A stretch of 64,000 bases of DNA, taken from contig CALGSZ010000158.1 in assembly GCA_937901745.1 (NCBI GenBank), positions 4,515 through 68,514 on the forward strand, read 5' to 3'. The first letter of the stretch is position 1, and each line of letters starts with the position of its first letter. Positions 3,696 to 28,563 of this stretch are shown here, piece after piece. The stretch is from an uncultured Chloroflexota bacterium. Lineage in GTDB: Bacteria > Chloroflexota > Chloroflexia > Thermomicrobiales > UBA6265. Below the pieces are notes generated by a model that had not been told where the DNA came from, searched no databases, and saw only the letters and a program-made list of their open reading frames with translations. The translations under genes and the position numbers were made by a program.

Positions 3696-3901
3696 CTCGA
3701 CCTGGGCGGTAGTCCCGCGGCCCTTGACGTGCCGTTCCCGTTCCCTCCCGCCCTGCCGGCTCTGCCGGCGCGATGACGGCCGGTAACGCGCCTCCCCCCG
3801 GGCGCAGCCGGCCGTCGTCGTGTTTGCTGAGGATATACTGCCGCCCAAGGTGGTCCGCGCTCGGCGCGCAGACGTCGAGCATTTCCCAGTGGAGGAGAGA
3901 C

Positions 3902-4894
3902 GTGAGCGAGGCGCTCCGCGAGGACTCGCGGTCGGTGGTTGATGTGCCGATAGGGTTGGACGACGTGCGCAAGGCGCGAGAGCGCATCGCCGGACTTGTC
4001 CACCGGACACCGCTCTTGACGAGCCGGACGCTGAGCCAGATGACCAACACGGACCTCCGGCTCAAGGCGGAAAATCTGCAGCGGACTGGCTCGTTCAAGC
4101 CGCGTGGCGCGTTCAATGCCGTCATGCAGCTGACGAGTGAGGAGCGGAGACGCGGCGTCGTCACCTTCTCCGCGGGGAACCACGGGCAGGCGCTGGCCTA
4201 CGCGGCTACGCAGGCGGGTGTCGCCTGCACCGTCTTCATGTCCAAGAACGCCGTGCCCGCCAAGGTGGCGGCGATTCGCGGCTACGGCGGCGAGGTCCGG
4301 TTTGGCGAGGGCATCAACGAGGCGTACGCGGCGATGGAGGCGTTCATCCGGGAGACCGGGGCGACGTTCGTCTCGCCGTTTGCCCAGCCGCCGATCATCG
4401 CGGGTCAGGGGACGGTCGGGCTGGAGATCCTCGAGGACGATCCGGAAGTCGAGCAGATCGTCGTCGCGGTTGGCGGAGGCGGCTTGATCGCTGGCATCGC
4501 GCTGGCGGCCAAAGCGCTGCGGCCGGACATTCGCATCGTCGGCGTCGAGCCGGAGGGATCGGCGGCGGTTTACCGAGCCCTGGAGGCGGGCAAGCCGGTG
4601 CGGCTGGAGCGCAACGAGACGATCGCCGACGGCCTGGCAGCGCCGTTCACGGAGGAGCTGCCCCTCGCCATCATCCAGCGCTATGTTGACGACGTGGTCT
4701 TGGTCACGGACGACGAAATCCTTGCCGCGCTGCGCCTAACGCTGGAGCGGACGAAGCTGCTCGTCGAGCCGGCCGCGGCGGCGGCGGTCGCGGCGTTGTT
4801 GACCGGCAAGGCGGCGATCCCGCACGGCGCCCGGACCGTCGTGGTCCTCAGCGGCGGCAATATTGGGATCGACCGGCTCAAGGCGGTTCTCTAA
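3902..4894 (+). CDS. PLP-dependent threonine/serine dehydratase (threonine ammonia-lyase family)
   Basis: LKAENLQRTGSFKPRGAFNAV contains the PLP-lysine motif S-F-K-x-R-G, and GGGGLIAG is the glycine loop. GTG at 3902 follows GGAGGAG. The upstream part of the ORF-track call (from 3773) is Arg/Pro-rich and unlikely to be coding. Confidence 0.85.
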   Translation: MSEALREDSRSVVDVPIGLDDVRKARERIAGLVHRTPLLTSRTLSQMTNTDLRLKAENLQRTGSFKPRGAFNAVMQLTSEERRRGVVTFSAGNHGQALAYAATQAGVACTVFMSKNAVPAKVAAIRGYGGEVRFGEGINEAYAAMEAFIRETGATFVSPFAQPPIIAGQGTVGLEILEDDPEVEQIVVAVGGGGLIAGIALAAKALRPDIRIVGVEPEGSAAVYRALEAGKPVRLERNETIADGLAAPFTEELPLAIIQRYVDDVVLVTDDEILAALRLTLERTKLLVEPAAAAAVAALLTGKAAIPHGARTVVVLSGGNIGIDRLKAVL

Positions 4895-24246: not shown

Positions 24247-26040
24247 TCACCGCTTAGTGCCGGTAGAGATGAGCTCGGTCACCGCCGCTTCTTCGCTCTC
24301 GATCAACGCGGAGAGCAGCGGGCCGCGCTCCTTGCCGGCGACGAATTCGAGCCGGCGCAGGCCGAGCGGATCGATTTCCTCGCGGATGAGGCGAAGCTGC
24401 TCGTCCGTCGGCGGCTCGGTCGTCGCGACGCTCGGAGCGAGCCGGAGCGGGAAGCCGGCGGCCGCTTGGACATCGTCCACGGTGACGCCGGGGTGGACCG
24501 AGGTTAGGGTCAGCTCGCGGGATGCCTCGTCCAGCTCGAAGACGCCGAGGTTGGTGATGAGCTTGACGTGGCCCGGCTGGTAGCCGGCGGCGATCCGCTC
24601 CTCATCGGTGAGGAGGCCACGGGCGGCGCTGATGTACTCGACGCGCTCGACGAGCGAGAGTGGCGATTGCCGTGTGAGATAGAGCAGGAAATGGCGGTGC
24701 ATGTTCGCCACGTCGGCCATGCCGCCCTGGCCTGGCAGCCGGATTTTCCGACCGCTCGGCGAAGTGACCTGGATGTTGTTCGTGTTCGCGTGGCGATCGA
24801 TCTGCGCCGCGCTGACGATCTCATGGGTGACGAGGCCGCGTTGGTAGTACCAATGGTAGCTCTCGTCGCCGCCGCAGTGGAAGACGGCCGTCTGGAAGTC
24901 GAGCGGCTCGGCGAGCGCCATCAGCATCGGGCGAGGCGCGACGTCGATCAGGCCGCCGTTGGATGTCATTAGCAGTAGGTTCGGCGCGTGCGTCCGCTTG
25001 GCGAGGAGGTACGCGGTCGTGGCCAGCGGCGAGACGGAGCCGACAGAGCAGACGCTCTCGTTGTCGAGCTGCCGCGCGATCCAGGCGACCATCACCTCGT
25101 CCACTGTCGCCGCGCCGGCTTCCGCTTCGCCTGTCCGGTGCTTGAGCAGCGCTGGCCCGGTGACCTTGGCAGACTCTACTTTCGCCGCGGCAGAGAGGAA
25201 GCGCTGCCGCTCCGGCTCGGGCGACTGTGGCTCCAGCGTTTCGGCGGACGTGAGCCGGTGCAGCTCGCGGTAGTCGGCGGCGTAGTAGGGGACGCAGGAA
25301 GTCGGGTAGGCGCCGAAGGGGACGTGCGCGACGGCGGTGACGAAGGATCGCCCGAGGATGAATGCACGTGGCGCGGCCGACCGCTGGAAGGTGCCGCGCG
25401 GGACGATCTCCTCAACGGTGACGAGGACGCGCCGCGCCGCGAACGCCATGCTCAGGTCGAGTCCGCGCGCGCCTTGGATCTCGACGTTGCCGTCCTCATC
25501 GGCGCGATGCGCGTGGAGGAGTAGGACATCCAGCGGCAGCGCCCGGGCCGCGCCGACCTGCTTGCCGGTGATGGGGTCCGGATACGGCGTGGCGAATCCG
25601 GAGCGTTCCACGATCTCGGAGCCGAGCGGGAGCGGGAAGGGCATGGAGGGGACGCCGTGCTGCGCGGCGTGGAAGCCCTGCATCATGCCCAGTGCGGTCC
25701 ATTCTTCCAGCTCGACGGTGCCGTCCTCGACCGCCTTCCGGAAACGGGGAGCGAGGCCGAAGACGTCGAGGCTGTTGAAGCAGAGCGCCATCTTGCGGAC
25801 GGCGCCTGCCTCCAGCAGCAGCTCCAGACCGAGGCTCCCGCCCCAGGAGACGTAGTCCAGGTCCTTGACGCCGCGGGCAATGACGGCCCGGATCAGCGCG
25901 ATCGGGAGGCGAGAGAAGTGGAACCCGCCGATGGCAAGGCGATCGCCGTCCCGGACGTGGGCCGCGAGATCGTCGAGGGAGACGATGCGCGGCTGCTGGG
26001 CCGGGACGCCGACGACGGCGCTGCCGCTTGTCGCGCTCAC
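24247..26040 (-). CDS. family I CoA-transferase, fused subunit A + subunit B (glutaconate/3-oxoacid CoA-transferase-like)
   Basis: The N-half (DGDRLAIGGFHFSRLPIALIRAVI) is GctA/AtoD-like. The C-half (VCSVGSVSPLATTAYLLAKRTHAPNLLLMTSNGG ... LPGQGGMADV) is GctB/AtoA-like. GTG at 26040 overlaps the upstream stop (GTGA). The ORF-track extension to 26844 is Arg-rich shadow overlapping the CaiB gene. Confidence 0.8.
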   Translation of the reverse strand: MSATSGSAVVGVPAQQPRIVSLDDLAAHVRDGDRLAIGGFHFSRLPIALIRAVIARGVKDLDYVSWGGSLGLELLLEAGAVRKMALCFNSLDVFGLAPRFRKAVEDGTVELEEWTALGMMQGFHAAQHGVPSMPFPLPLGSEIVERSGFATPYPDPITGKQVGAARALPLDVLLLHAHRADEDGNVEIQGARGLDLSMAFAARRVLVTVEEIVPRGTFQRSAAPRAFILGRSFVTAVAHVPFGAYPTSCVPYYAADYRELHRLTSAETLEPQSPEPERQRFLSAAAKVESAKVTGPALLKHRTGEAEAGAATVDEVMVAWIARQLDNESVCSVGSVSPLATTAYLLAKRTHAPNLLLMTSNGGLIDVAPRPMLMALAEPLDFQTAVFHCGGDESYHWYYQRGLVTHEIVSAAQIDRHANTNNIQVTSPSGRKIRLPGQGGMADVANMHRHFLLYLTRQSPLSLVERVEYISAARGLLTDEERIAAGYQPGHVKLITNLGVFELDEASRELTLTSVHPGVTVDDVQAAAGFPLRLAPSVATTEPPTDEQLRLIREEIDPLGLRRLEFVAGKERGPLLSALIESEEAAVTELISTGTKR

Positions 26041-27224
26041 CCCAACACGACTCCTTGCTCGCGCAGCTCCTTGATCTCTTCGTCGCTGTAGCCCGCGAAC
26101 TCCCGCAGCAGCTCGGCCGTGTGCTGGCCCGCCAGTGGCGCGGGGCGCCGGATCTCTCCCGGCGTTTCGCTGAACTTGACCGGGATGCCGATGCCGCGGA
26201 CCTTGCCCGCCTTGGGATGCTCCCACTCGACGATCATCTCGTTCTCCGCGACCTGCGGATCCTTCTCGACGTCCGCGAAGGTGTTGACCGGCGCGCACCA
26301 GATATCCTCGGCCAGCAGGATGTCGAGCCATTCCTGCGTGGTCTTGTTGATGAACGCCTTTTGGAAGTCGGCGCGGATCTCGTCGCGTCCTTCCATGACC
26401 TGTGAGGCGGTGCAGTCCTCGTAGCCGGGCACGCCGACGAGCTGCGCCAGCTTGTTGATCGGGTTCATCGCGATGGCGATGTAGCCGTCCTTGGTCTTGT
26501 AGAACCCGTACGGCGCGCCGAGATACGGGCCGGGGATGCCGCTGCGGCTGCGCTTCGGCAGTCCGCCGCCGTTGAGATAGACGCCGAACTCCTGGATGTG
26601 CAGGTTCATGATGGAGTTGAGGAGGTTGACGTCGACGCGCTGCCCTTTGCCGGTCCGCTCGCGCGCATAGAGGGCGGCGAGGATGCCATAGACGATGTGG
26701 AAGCCGGCGGTGAAGTCGGCTAGACCAACGGCGACGCCCTGCGGGGGATCGTCCTCGTTGCCGTTGAGGTACCCGACGCCAGCGACGGCTTGGACGAGCA
26801 GGTCTTGTCCCGGCCGCTTGACGTACGGCCCGGTTTGGCCCCACCCCGCGCTGGCGCAGTAGATCAGGCGCGGGAACTGCTTGGATAGCTCCTCGTACCC
26901 GAGACCGAGCCGCTCCATGACGCCGGGCCGGAAGTTCTCGACGACGACATCCGACTTGGCGATCAGGCGCAGCGCGACTTCTTTGCCGCGCGGGTGCTTG
27001 AGATCGAGGCAGATGCTTCGCTTATTGCGATTGAATGAGAGGAAGGAGACGCCTTCGCCTTCTAGAAAGAGATTGGCCATGCTCCAGTGGCGCATCCAGT
27101 CGCCCTTGGGCGGCTCGATCTTGATGATCTCCGCGCCCAGGTCGCCGAGCATCTGGGTAGCGAAGGGCCCCTGCGCCAGCTGGGTGAAGTCCGCGATTAC
27201 GAGTCCTTCGAGTGGTCCGGACAT
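26037..27224 (-). CDS. CaiB/BaiF family (family III) CoA-transferase
   Basis: LEGLVIADFTQLAQGPFATQMLGDLGAEIIKIEPP and VVVENFRPGVMERLGLGYEEL are hallmark family III blocks. ATG at 27224 follows AGGAGC. Confidence 0.9.
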   Translation of the reverse strand: MSGPLEGLVIADFTQLAQGPFATQMLGDLGAEIIKIEPPKGDWMRHWSMANLFLEGEGVSFLSFNRNKRSICLDLKHPRGKEVALRLIAKSDVVVENFRPGVMERLGLGYEELSKQFPRLIYCASAGWGQTGPYVKRPGQDLLVQAVAGVGYLNGNEDDPPQGVAVGLADFTAGFHIVYGILAALYARERTGKGQRVDVNLLNSIMNLHIQEFGVYLNGGGLPKRSRSGIPGPYLGAPYGFYKTKDGYIAIAMNPINKLAQLVGVPGYEDCTASQVMEGRDEIRADFQKAFINKTTQEWLDILLAEDIWCAPVNTFADVEKDPQVAENEMIVEWEHPKAGKVRGIGIPVKFSETPGEIRRPAPLAGQHTAELLREFAGYSDEEIKELREQGVVLG

Positions 27225-27235
27225 GTAGGTGCTCC

Positions 27236-27694
27236 TCATACAGAGTGCTGAGTGCTGGGTGCTGAGTGCCAAGTGGAGGACGGGGCTGAGCGGGTTGGGT
27301 GCTGAGAGTGGCGAGAAGTTTGGGTGGCGCGGCGTTGGACGGCGGCGCGGAGGCCGCCGATGACGCGGCCGGTTTCGGTTGCCTGACCGTGAAGCCGCTG
27401 GAAGGTGGCTTCGTCGAGGAAGCCGTAATCCCAGGCGGCGTACAGCAGCGAGCGGACCTCCGCGCACGATGCCTTCGCGACCGACAGGACGTGCTCGAAC
27501 TCGGCAGAGCCGTCGCGTTCGAATCCTTCCGCGATGTTGGACATGGATGACACCGCCGCGCGCCGGAGCTGACGCGCGAGGTCGGCGTCCGACCACTGCC
27601 GCCGATCGCTCGTCACCGCGTGAATGGAGCTCACGAGTTCTCTCGCTTTCTGCCAAGCGATGAGATCCTCAAACCGGTCCGTCCCACTTGCCAC
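27236..27694 (-). CDS. four-helix-bundle protein (23S rRNA intervening-sequence protein family, TIGR02436-like)
   Basis: FEDLIAWQKARELV ... LARQLRRAAVSSMSNIAEGFERDGSAEFEHVLSVAKASCAEVRSLL matches the family signature (W-Q-K-A ... Q-x-R-R-A-A-x-S-x-x-x-N-I-A-E-G ... E-F ... A-x-x-S-x-x-E). The C-terminal tail is encoded by the flanking repeats. Confidence 0.85.
   Translation of the reverse strand: MASGTDRFEDLIAWQKARELVSSIHAVTSDRRQWSDADLARQLRRAAVSSMSNIAEGFERDGSAEFEHVLSVAKASCAEVRSLLYAAWDYGFLDEATFQRLHGQATETGRVIGGLRAAVQRRATQTSRHSQHPTRSAPSSTWHSAPSTQHSV
27245..27306. repeat. left flank repeat block: 4 copies of (G)TGCTGAG
   Basis: GTGCTGAG at 27245, 27259 and 27299, and GGCTGAG at 27284. This is the reverse complement of the right-flank block. 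Confidence 0.8.
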
Positions 27695-27713
27695 CCCACT
27701 CCATCACTCAACA

Positions 27714-27756
27714 CTCAGCACGTTCCTCTCAGCACTCAGCACTTGCTCCTCAGCAC
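27714..27756. repeat. right flank repeat block: 4 copies of CTCAGCAC
   Basis: CTCAGCAC at 27714, 27728, 27735 and 27749. They fill the 65-nt spacer between the SDR stop (27760) and the four-helix-bundle start (27694). Confidence 0.8.
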
Positions 27757-27759
27757 TCT

Positions 27760-28563
27760 CTATCCATTGAATAGCGGCGACAGTAGGCCGCCATCGACCC
27801 GGTAGCAGCCGCCCGTGCAGAACGAGGCTTCGTCGCTGGCGAGGAAGAGGACGAGGTTGGCCACCTCCTCCGGCCGGCCGACGCGGCCGATTGGGTGCAT
27901 CTGGCCCCAGGCGCGGATCGCGCCTTCCGGATCGTCGCCGCCGAAGGTGTGGGCCGAGTGCTCCAGCATCGGCGTGCGGATGCTGCCCGGCGCGATGCAG
28001 TTGCAGCGGATGTTTTCGTGCGCGTGGTCGAGCGCGACCGTCGTCGTGAAGCTGACGACGCCGCCCTTCGAGGCCGAGTAGGCGGCGACGGTCTTCTGCG
28101 AGGCGAACGCCTGGACCGACGCGGTGTTGACGATGGCGCCGCCGCCGCGCTTCCGCATCTCCGGGATCGCGTACTTGCAGGTCAGGAACGTGCCCTTGAG
28201 GTTGACGTCGAGCTGGAAATCCCAGTCCTCTTCGGAGAGCTCCTCGACGGTGCCGTACCGCGCCACGCCGGCGTTGTTGTAGAGCACGTCAACGCCGCCA
28301 AAGGTGCGAACGGCGGTGTCGATCAGGTTCTTGACGTCGGCGGCATTGCGAACGTCGCACTTGACGGCGACAGCCTTTCCGCCGGCTTCCTTGATCTGGC
28401 GAACCGTCTCGTTGGCATCCTCTTCGCTAACATCGCCGATGACGACGGAGCCGCCCTCCCGGGCGAAGGCGAGCGCGGCCACGCGCCCGATGCCCTTGCC
28501 GGCGCCGGTGATGACGATCACTTTGTTGACGAACCGTTGGTTGCGGTCGATGCGATCGGTCAT
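27760..28563 (-). CDS. SDR family oxidoreductase
   Basis: TGAGKGIGRVAALAFAREG (TGxxxGxG), NNAG, and catalytic S ... YSASKGGV. Confidence 0.9.
   Translation of the reverse strand: MTDRIDRNQRFVNKVIVITGAGKGIGRVAALAFAREGGSVVIGDVSEEDANETVRQIKEAGGKAVAVKCDVRNAADVKNLIDTAVRTFGGVDVLYNNAGVARYGTVEELSEEDWDFQLDVNLKGTFLTCKYAIPEMRKRGGGAIVNTASVQAFASQKTVAAYSASKGGVVSFTTTVALDHAHENIRCNCIAPGSIRTPMLEHSAHTFGGDDPEGAIRAWGQMHPIGRVGRPEEVANLVLFLASDEASFCTGGCYRVDGGLLSPLFNG

Follow-up and report, generated by a model that had tools for sequence, protein, structure and literature searches.

What is a small gene of the 23S ribosomal RNA (rRNA) intervening-sequence protein family doing between two enzyme genes of a bacterial operon, with blocks of mutually complementary repeats on either side of it? 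The question is raised by a 64,000-nt stretch of contig CALGSZ010000158.1 of assembly GCA_937901745.1 (hereafter the window), in which a catabolic operon of a Thermomicrobiales bacterium runs along the minus strand in the order permease, DUF4432, lactonase, short-chain dehydrogenase (SDR), cassette, CoA-transferases. The cassette, also on the minus strand, is a promoterless element of about 520 nt; its neighbours are metabolic or transport genes, and its own gene encodes a four-helix-bundle (4HB) protein of family PF05635 (23S_rRNA_IVP, Avd-like; TIGR02436 is a label for the same family). This 4HB gene, the only family member in the window, fills the whole gap from the SDR stop codon to the start codon of a CaiB-like CoA-transferase gene, as a preliminary description made from the sequence alone had stated and as open reading frame (ORF) positions and Pfam matches confirm. 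We argue below that the cassette has been inserted, and propose that it is co-transcribed with its host operon and has its ORF looped out by pairing of its arms, an explanation to which, taken as a whole, we assign a probability of roughly 0.55.

The blocks on either side of the 4HB gene are arrays of a tandem heptamer, (GTGCTGA)n, and of its complement, (TCAGCAC)n. The preliminary description had counted four octamer copies on each side; the four upstream copies are indeed exact, whereas the downstream block holds three exact copies together with one-mismatch ones, and the unit itself proved to be the heptamer, with a period of 7. Exact copies of GTGCTGAG number seven in the window, all of them at the cassette, against 2.8 expected for the whole window: four, within 27714-27756, read along the minus strand, and the other three, at 27245, 27259 and 27299, along the plus strand. 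Single-mismatch copies are present in the 3′ block (GTGCTGGG at 27252 and GGGCTGAG at 27283) and as a fifth copy in the upstream block (GTGTTGAG, 27707-27714), each block amounting to about five copies when variants are included. Tandem Repeats Finder placed period-7 arrays at 27243-27269 and 27705-27743, and the window contains no other substantial heptamer arrays.

Inverted repeats link the two blocks, with arms of 40-46 nt that are 72-75% complementary (27238-27288 and 27692-27763), and in the predicted fold of the RNA from 27225 to 27765 the blocks close a long stem around the ORF (minimum free energy (MFE) −273.5 kcal/mol, z = −7.8; 0 of 100 shuffles folded as well), in agreement with the earlier proposal that they can pair. 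The predicted stem extends to the SDR stop codon (TAG, 27762-27760, minus strand) and on its other side ends one base ahead of the Shine-Dalgarno (SD) sequence of the CaiB-like gene. The 5′ arm starts at the SDR stop codon and, read directly from the sequence, has TGA in all three frames; its four exact copies and one variant are interspersed with GAGGAG/AGGAAC, and the SD of the 4HB gene (GGAG, 27702-27699) lies within it, as does that gene's GTG start codon (27694-27692). The 3′ arm, complementary to the 5′ arm and with its repeats spanning 27245-27306 on the plus strand, is stop-free in every frame. The core domain of the 4HB protein is encoded by 27320-27694, and the final ~24 codons are read-through of the 3′ array, which yields the odd peptide tail SQHPTRSAPSSTWHSAPSTQHSV that the preliminary description had already ascribed to the repeats. 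The 4HB stop codon overlaps the CaiB SD (TGAGGAG), which lies directly 3′ of the stem base. No promoter-like or terminator-like site was found on the cassette strand in the cassette, and 26800-28200 contains no Rfam match.

The insertion itself is visible in related operons. CaiB orthologues with 80-90% identity were recovered from Thermomicrobiales, in operons that share gene order, and their SDR/CaiB junctions occur in five states. The junction is empty in L086/L087, where the TAA stop is followed by a 26-nt spacer with an SD, the very comparison that the preliminary description had proposed for its claim of a discrete insertion in an mRNA. Two relatives (L088, L089) have the same cassette at the same site, with GTGCTGA arms, a TGA stop directly followed by GTGCTGAG, and 4HB proteins with 76-81% identity over the core. 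The remaining states are a 113-nt ORF-less hairpin of heptamer-like GCCAGCY/GCTAGCR units (L082-L085, 2888-3000), an unrelated 205-nt filler with several internal palindromes (L090/L091, about 2296-2500), and a different array in the closest CaiB orthologue (L081, 90% identity), whose contig begins inside CCCTAAC/CCCTCAC repeats 16 nt before CaiB. The SDR C-terminus (LLSPLFNG and stop) is unchanged in the states that keep the SDR end, with the exception of the empty L086/L087, which end in LFN and stop. The junction is thus empty, filled or otherwise occupied, the sporadic presence and absence among relatives expected of an intervening sequence (IVS), and we hold with high confidence that the element is an inserted cassette of this architecture. 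The coordinates of the features in the window are collected in Table 1.

Table 1 Features of the cassette and the adjoining host genes in the window
Feature	Position	Strand	Basis
SDR gene, upstream host gene	27760..28563	−	ORF list; Pfam adh_short_C2, 5.6e-68
5′ arm of the cassette	27692..27763	−	Inverted repeats, fold, Tandem Repeats Finder
4HB gene, 152 aa	27236..27694	−	Pfam, 3.2e-28; GTG at 27694, TGA at 27238-27236
3′ arm, CTCAGCAC copies and variants (minus strand)	27238..27306	−	Repeats, inverted repeats, fold
SD (GAGGAG) of the CaiB-like gene	27232..27237	−	Read from the sequence and the MFE structure
CaiB-like family III CoA-transferase gene, downstream host gene	26037..27224	−	Pfam CoA_transf_3, 5.7e-120; ATG at 27224

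The same layout recurs well beyond this operon. Eighty homologous loci were fetched from named genomes, the best 80 of at least 597 genome matches, giving 81 with the window; arrays were detected by exact 7-periodicity, and ORF boundaries in high-GC loci are heuristic. Among the sources of the loci are Chloroflexota, Nitrospirota, Nostocales, Planctomycetota, Acidobacteriota, several ‘delta’ lineages, Desulforudis, Kapaibacterium, Gemmatimonadota, and beta- and gammaproteobacteria, more than 10 phyla in all. Period-7 arrays lie upstream of the 4HB gene in 62 of the 81 loci, downstream in 62, and on both sides in 50, and 41 of these 50 have the same heptamer as complements on the two arms (permuted mean 8.3, maximum 17 in 2000 permutations). 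The repeats therefore flank most other copies of the family, contrary to the possibility, raised in the preliminary description, that their absence elsewhere would reveal an ordinary gene. Arrays are 16 times as dense in the flanks as over the remainder of the loci (3.96 vs 0.24 per kb), and complementarity of the flanks, with a median score of 51 vs 27 in a reversed-arm control, holds also where strict arrays are missing. Elements are 435-772 nt long (median 509).

At least 14 heptamer types were found, with the consensus G[T/G]NN[T/C]GA; GTGCTGA is present in 21 loci and GGACTGA in 15, followed by GTGATGA, GTAATGA, GTTCCGA, GTGCCGA and others. The number of units varies from 2 to 17, and orthologous Nostoc sites differ in both the number and composition of their units. 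GTGCTGA arrays are retained at the same site across a synonymous divergence (dS) of 1.2-1.7, that is, at synonymous saturation, and GTGCTGA and GGACTGA heptamers are retained in genomes of 41-75% GC. As a marker of protein clades the heptamer type is weak: it is common to 48% of pairs at ≥75% protein identity and to 5-16% below that, and GTGCTGA and GGACTGA recur across the protein tree. One Terriglobia metagenome-assembled genome (MAG; L037) has two cassettes 3 kb apart (901-1342 and about 3860-4400), one with GTTCCGA and the other with GTGCTGA arms, each matching itself, and the second with 17 upstream units. In the searchable literature, which does not take in subscription journals, we found no description linking the PF05635 family to heptamer arrays, and a PF05635 gene enclosed by complementary heptamer arrays in more than 10 phyla is apparently an undescribed arrangement.

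In-frame stops interrupt three of the 81 4HB genes (L012, L058 and L061), and these loci look decaying or rearranged; L061 has in addition a duplicated 3′ gene end and a second TCAGCAC array at 4330-4590.

The arms are placed with precision relative to the host genes and differ in coding polarity. In 59 of 68 loci the upstream stop codon abuts or falls within the first heptamer, as in TAA followed by GTGCTGAG, TGA followed by GTGCTGAG or TAG followed by TGCTGAG, and the outermost stem pair is, at the median, −1 nt from where the upstream stop ends and 8 nt ahead of the downstream same-strand start. Among complementary array pairs no more than 800 nt apart, it is the 5′ arm that bears stops in 60 pairs vs 2, and in loci seeded on an array alone in 52 vs 2, for a sum of 112 vs 4. 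Because such a palindrome is identical on both strands, a ribosome arriving from either side first meets stops in three frames; the 3′ arm is open in all frames, hence the junk tails of the 4HB proteins. Homologues at 55-65% identity from unrelated MAGs end in STQHSAPSTQH or have N-terminal extensions with WVLSAES, which are translated arrays, and these extensions are accordingly not part of the protein.

The protein enclosed by the arms is a strongly conserved family member. It matches PF05635 with 98.5 bits (cut-off 33.8) over profile positions 1-105 of 106, and its AlphaFold2 monomer model (pLDDT 93.6) has helices at residues 12-28, 37-59, 63-89 and 95-124. In Foldseek its best matches were XCC0516 (2GSC, TM 0.82-0.89), BT_0352 (2RLD, TM 0.76-0.87) and Avd (4DWL and 8UB7, TM 0.7-0.8, sequence identity about 13%). 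The conserved family motif RxxxSxxxNxxE (PMC3936711) is present as R45, S49, N53 and E56; among 77 homologues S49, N53 and E56 are invariant and R45 is kept in at least 90%, and 20 residues in all are invariant. Eight comparisons yielded an estimate of dN/dS, with values of 0.04-0.14, and the ratio was 0.08-0.10 against the same-site orthologues, so the 4HB protein is maintained by strong purifying selection. The GC content of the 4HB ORF tracks that of the host (r = 0.80), yet is 6.7 points lower. The family comprises 30,138 clusters at 50% identity (E ≤ 0.001), with homologues of 91-209 aa; it is nearly absent from mobile carriers, as phages gave no match, plasmids 10 records, and 2.9 million viral contigs a single one. 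Two crystal structures of family members exist, and the function is to this day described as ‘uncharacterized’ (PMC11270868).

Heptamer arrays also occur in quantity apart from the gene. Metagenomes were scanned for (GTGCTGA)3G and 80 loci were analysed; the array-seeded blocks include 31 in ORF-less hairpins, 38 that are unpaired or mosaic with other heptamers, and 32 at contig ends. Of 86 array-seeded blocks, 47 have a long ORF that ends between −12 and +15 nt relative to where the array begins, vs 11 in a shifted control, and for 20 of these 47 ORFs the array's own TGA is the stop codon. These are tandem 7-nt units between same-strand genes and adjoining a stop codon, as in the short tandemly repeated repetitive (STRR) sequences of cyanobacteria. 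Complementary hairpins without an ORF also lie near cassettes (L020, 6627-6706, −63.7 kcal/mol; L052, L026 and L016), and other arrays in a locus share the heptamer type of its cassette in 25 of 107 cases, vs 6.7 expected and at most 18 in permutations. Within a wider and commoner class of heptamer arrays and hairpins that adjoin stop codons, the cassette is the form that bears an ORF; the class takes in STRR-type repeats, the GGGAATC sites of Xanthomonas and the MTYCTGA sites of Geobacter.

Some array-rich loci have a more elaborate organisation. In a Trichormus sp. (L013; 1674-1718, 3917-4438, 5498-5522 and 6826-6912), GTGCTGA/TCAGCAC arrays occupy successive junctions of a phage-tail-like (baseplate) operon; one pair of 5′-type and 3′-type arrays brackets a 434-aa operon gene that is not a 4HB gene, and a single array contributes the upstream TGA as well as the GTG with which the next gene starts. 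Mosaics of heptamers lying side by side or nested were seen in metagenome and Thiohalophilus loci (L120, 3115-3290; L142, 7782-7990; L032, 1099-1502), for example with (GGATTGC)n outside (GTGCTGA)n, the outer pair being complementary and the inner array unpaired.

More distant family members extend the pattern. In Riemerella (Bacteroidota) the 4HB gene follows a TAA stop, with GGTTYAA arrays upstream and their complement reaching up to the next ATG; the records are ~100-kb ‘plasmids’ of Riemerella anatipestifer (L212; NZ_CP081938 and others), which have housekeeping genes, lepA among them, beside the cassette and may be chromosomal fragments. On a plasmid of Calothrix sp. PCC 7716 (L213, 1336-1960), a 4HB gene has GTTAGCT/AGCTAAA arms. 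In Xanthomonas spp. (L215/L218/L220, 1915-2380), the crystallised XCC0516-type 4HB gene stands between accB and accC in the conserved acetyl-CoA carboxylase operon. Its upstream arm reads GGGAATC GGGAGTG GAGAATC GGGAATC, and in its downstream arm these variants return in mirror order. Rehm et al. described GGGAATC as a ‘quadruplex-forming’ repeat, present at ~186 Xanthomonas sites with ~70 inverted pairs per genome, transcribed and within 50 bp of stop codons; that study makes no mention of a 4HB gene (PMC4692102).

We propose that the cassette would be co-transcribed with the operon and that its arms would pair into a stem of 25-50 bp, which would loop the ORF out and place the upstream stop codon beside the downstream start. 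The resulting topology would be that of a 23S rRNA IVS, and RNase III could plausibly act on the stem. Because the stem begins at the stop codon, a ribosome terminating there would be expected to open its base beside the downstream SD, such that the host genes may stay translationally coupled. That the arms matter functionally through their pairing as RNA is, on present evidence, about as likely as not; cleavage of the predicted stem by RNase III, suggested by analogy with the rRNA case, we put forward as tentative and slightly less probable than its absence, and any role of the 4HB protein is one that we infer.

Several observations weigh against this proposal or restrict it. Mismatches in the stems show no excess of G:U over A:C (195 vs 204 overall and 15 vs 17 when isolated), the positive mark that long-term selection acting on the sense RNA should leave; this either says nothing on the matter or speaks mildly against selection confined to the RNA, and would fit DNA-level homogenisation of the arms, or their recent formation, equally well. 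The arms remain matched even as heptamer type changes more quickly than the protein, which is difficult for a purely RNA-level account and points to some process at the level of DNA by which the arms become alike, or to an ORF that moves between pre-existing hairpins. The longest-open-frame orientation places both neighbours clearly on the same strand in only 45 of 81 loci, a heuristic that is unreliable at high GC (shadow ORFs) and that mis-assigned the window's own SDR. The Calothrix ORF is antisense to both of its neighbours, which are toxin-secretion genes, an arrangement that could reflect inversion between symmetric arms or insertion in the opposite orientation, and the predicted Xanthomonas stem is interrupted, with four 6-bp helices and a mismatch at every seventh position. 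Lastly, the repeats are not specific to the gene: only 2 of the 80 (GTGCTGA)3-seeded metagenome loci contain a 4HB gene, and many arrays are unpaired and have a life of their own. The IVS-like module envisaged in the preliminary description is supported as to architecture and insertion status, and its processing by RNase III is a hypothesis.

Some of these observations favour an alternative in which the 4HB protein, as a pentamer, would act in trans as the dedicated partner of heptamer arrays, binding them or helping to create or spread them, much as repetitive extragenic palindromic (REP) sequences relate to REP-associated tyrosine transposases (RAYTs). The gene would then sit inside a cognate pair, and the ORF-less arrays would be its non-autonomous forms. 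Arrays far outnumber 4HB cassettes, ORF-less hairpins are made of the same heptamers, and arrays in the same locus match the cassette's heptamer type beyond expectation (25 of 107 vs 6.7); GGGAATC, a heptamer with ~186 sites in Xanthomonas (PMC4692102), flanks XCC0516; the 4HB protein is strongly conserved (20 invariant residues in 77 sequences, dN/dS ~0.1); its homologue Avd binds RNA and reverse transcriptase (10.1101/2023.10.23.563531); and the absent G:U bias would be consistent with a symmetric, DNA-level process. We nevertheless consider such a system unlikely, if the best of the alternatives in our ranking, as the PF05635 family has no known fold or motif of a nuclease or recombinase, no target-site duplications are seen, and heptamer type follows protein relatedness weakly, which argues against tight co-evolution of specificity. 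If true, it would unite the operon cassettes with the ORFs of rRNA IVSs and with the STRR, GGGAATC and TAACTGA repeats in one hitherto unrecognised, phylum-spanning system that targets the positions just after stop codons. The absence of target-site duplications, with flanking direct repeats distributed in length as in a permuted control, also counts against a DNA transposon or miniature inverted-repeat transposable element (MITE) whose terminal inverted repeats would be the arms, with the transposase encoded elsewhere and the 4HB gene as passenger. Inverted ends, presence/absence polymorphism and short ORF-less versions would suit such an element, which is nonetheless very improbable given ends that are variable-length tandem arrays of at least 14 sequences, unlike a transposase-binding site, near absence from plasmids (10 records), absence from phages, presence on only one viral contig, and ORF GC that tracks the host (r = 0.80).

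Could the arms instead be functionless? Slippage beside stop codons and template switching at hairpins might generate them as a neutral by-product next to a 4HB gene that is an ordinary accessory gene, and the variation of 2 to 17 units, with differences between orthologous Nostoc sites, the mutational look of the mismatches (32 transitions vs 17 transversions, no G:U bias) and the many unpaired or mosaic arrays all accord with this. We find it improbable, because slippage would lead one to expect neither the retention of GTGCTGA and GGACTGA across phyla of 41-75% GC and across saturated synonymous divergence, nor the strict polarity (stops in the 5′ arm in 112 vs 4 pairs), nor the precise placement of the stem base against stop and start codons, nor the association of arrays with the family (62 of 81 loci on each side). 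An ordinary conserved gene with low-complexity flanks by coincidence has only the low complexity of the repeats in its favour and is already refuted by the comparative data: the empty site, the seven GTGCTGAG copies, the fold, the matching arms, their polarity and their placement all contradict it. Two known settings of the family were also considered and rejected for this locus. The eight operon genes scanned (permease, DUF4432, SGL, SDR, 4HB, two CoA-transferases and a solute-binding protein) include no reverse transcriptase, nor are there template/variable repeats nearby, as would befit the Avd component of a diversity-generating retroelement; and a classical rRNA IVS location does not apply to a cassette between two protein-coding genes with no Rfam match.

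Among known systems, the closest to the looped-out cassette that we propose are the ORF-bearing 23S rRNA IVSs described from Leptospira and, under the name ‘S23p’, Coxiella (Ralph & McClelland 1993, as cited in PMC3936711; PMC11270868). In rRNA, IVSs undergo cleavage by RNase III and may contain a PF05635 ORF (PMC11270868). The cassette resembles them in its protein family, in complementary flanks that would close a stem, in its presumed transcription within a host RNA and in its sporadic distribution; it differs in that the host is a polycistronic mRNA, in which the insert lies between a stop codon and the next start, and possibly in having arms of tandem heptamers with a stop in each unit. 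Avd shares the fold and has the same or a close Pfam family (PF05635/PF22296), whereas the cassette has neither a reverse transcriptase nor a template/variable repeat nearby and its protein is only about 13% identical. Other heptamer arrays have been described, including the cyanobacterial STRRs and the ‘G-quadruplex’ repeats GGGAATC of Xanthomonas and GGGGAYT of Nostoc (PMC4692102), as well as unexplained arrays of TAACTGA in Beggiatoaceae (PMC4679880) and MTYCTGA in Geobacter metallireducens (PMC2700814). With these, which are often in inverted pairs and transcribed, the cassette arms share tandem 7-nt units located between same-strand genes, yet a link to the 4HB gene is absent from those three reports (PMC4692102, PMC4679880, PMC2700814) and the range of taxa found here is wider. 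Since GTGCTGA and GGACTGA lack G-runs, quadruplex formation is not a general explanation of the arrays.

The likeness to REP sequences, their REPIN arrangements and RAYTs consists in a short intergenic repeat dispersed in many copies and a single small gene flanked by inverted cognate copies. RAYTs, however, are HUH tyrosine transposases with a catalytic motif, unlike the 4HB protein, which has no known catalytic fold, and REPs are single palindromic units rather than tandem heptamers, so the relation is only one of analogy. Correia (NEMIS) and enterobacterial repetitive intergenic consensus (ERIC) elements are MITE-like hairpins that form part of operon transcripts, where RNase III or RNase E cuts them, and that influence the processing of mRNA. 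The cassette is similarly an inverted-repeat insert in a presumably transcribed intergenic region with a long, here predicted, RNA hairpin, whereas those elements have fixed terminal repeats, target-site duplications and no ORF; the cassette has no duplication, arms that are arrays, and a conserved ORF in the loop.

For annotation, the variable N- and C-terminal extensions of family members are array read-through and not protein, and array-derived open frames can mislead gene callers, the homologue lengths of 91-209 aa reflecting the same read-through. A mechanical ORF list of the window includes, for instance, a 539-aa TTG ORF (26037-27656, minus strand) that joins an out-of-frame reading of the cassette to CaiB. 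For experiment, accB-XCC0516-accC of X. campestris offers a tractable model, with a solved structure, published RNA-seq and genetics.

Two long-standing orphans, the 23S rRNA IVS protein family and the heptamer tandem repeats on record since the STRRs of cyanobacteria, may be linked, and the link comes with a testable context. If the stem is processed, or if it keeps the host genes translationally coupled, the cassette would be a means of adding a gene to an operon without breaking it, and the IVS principle would extend from rRNA to mRNA.

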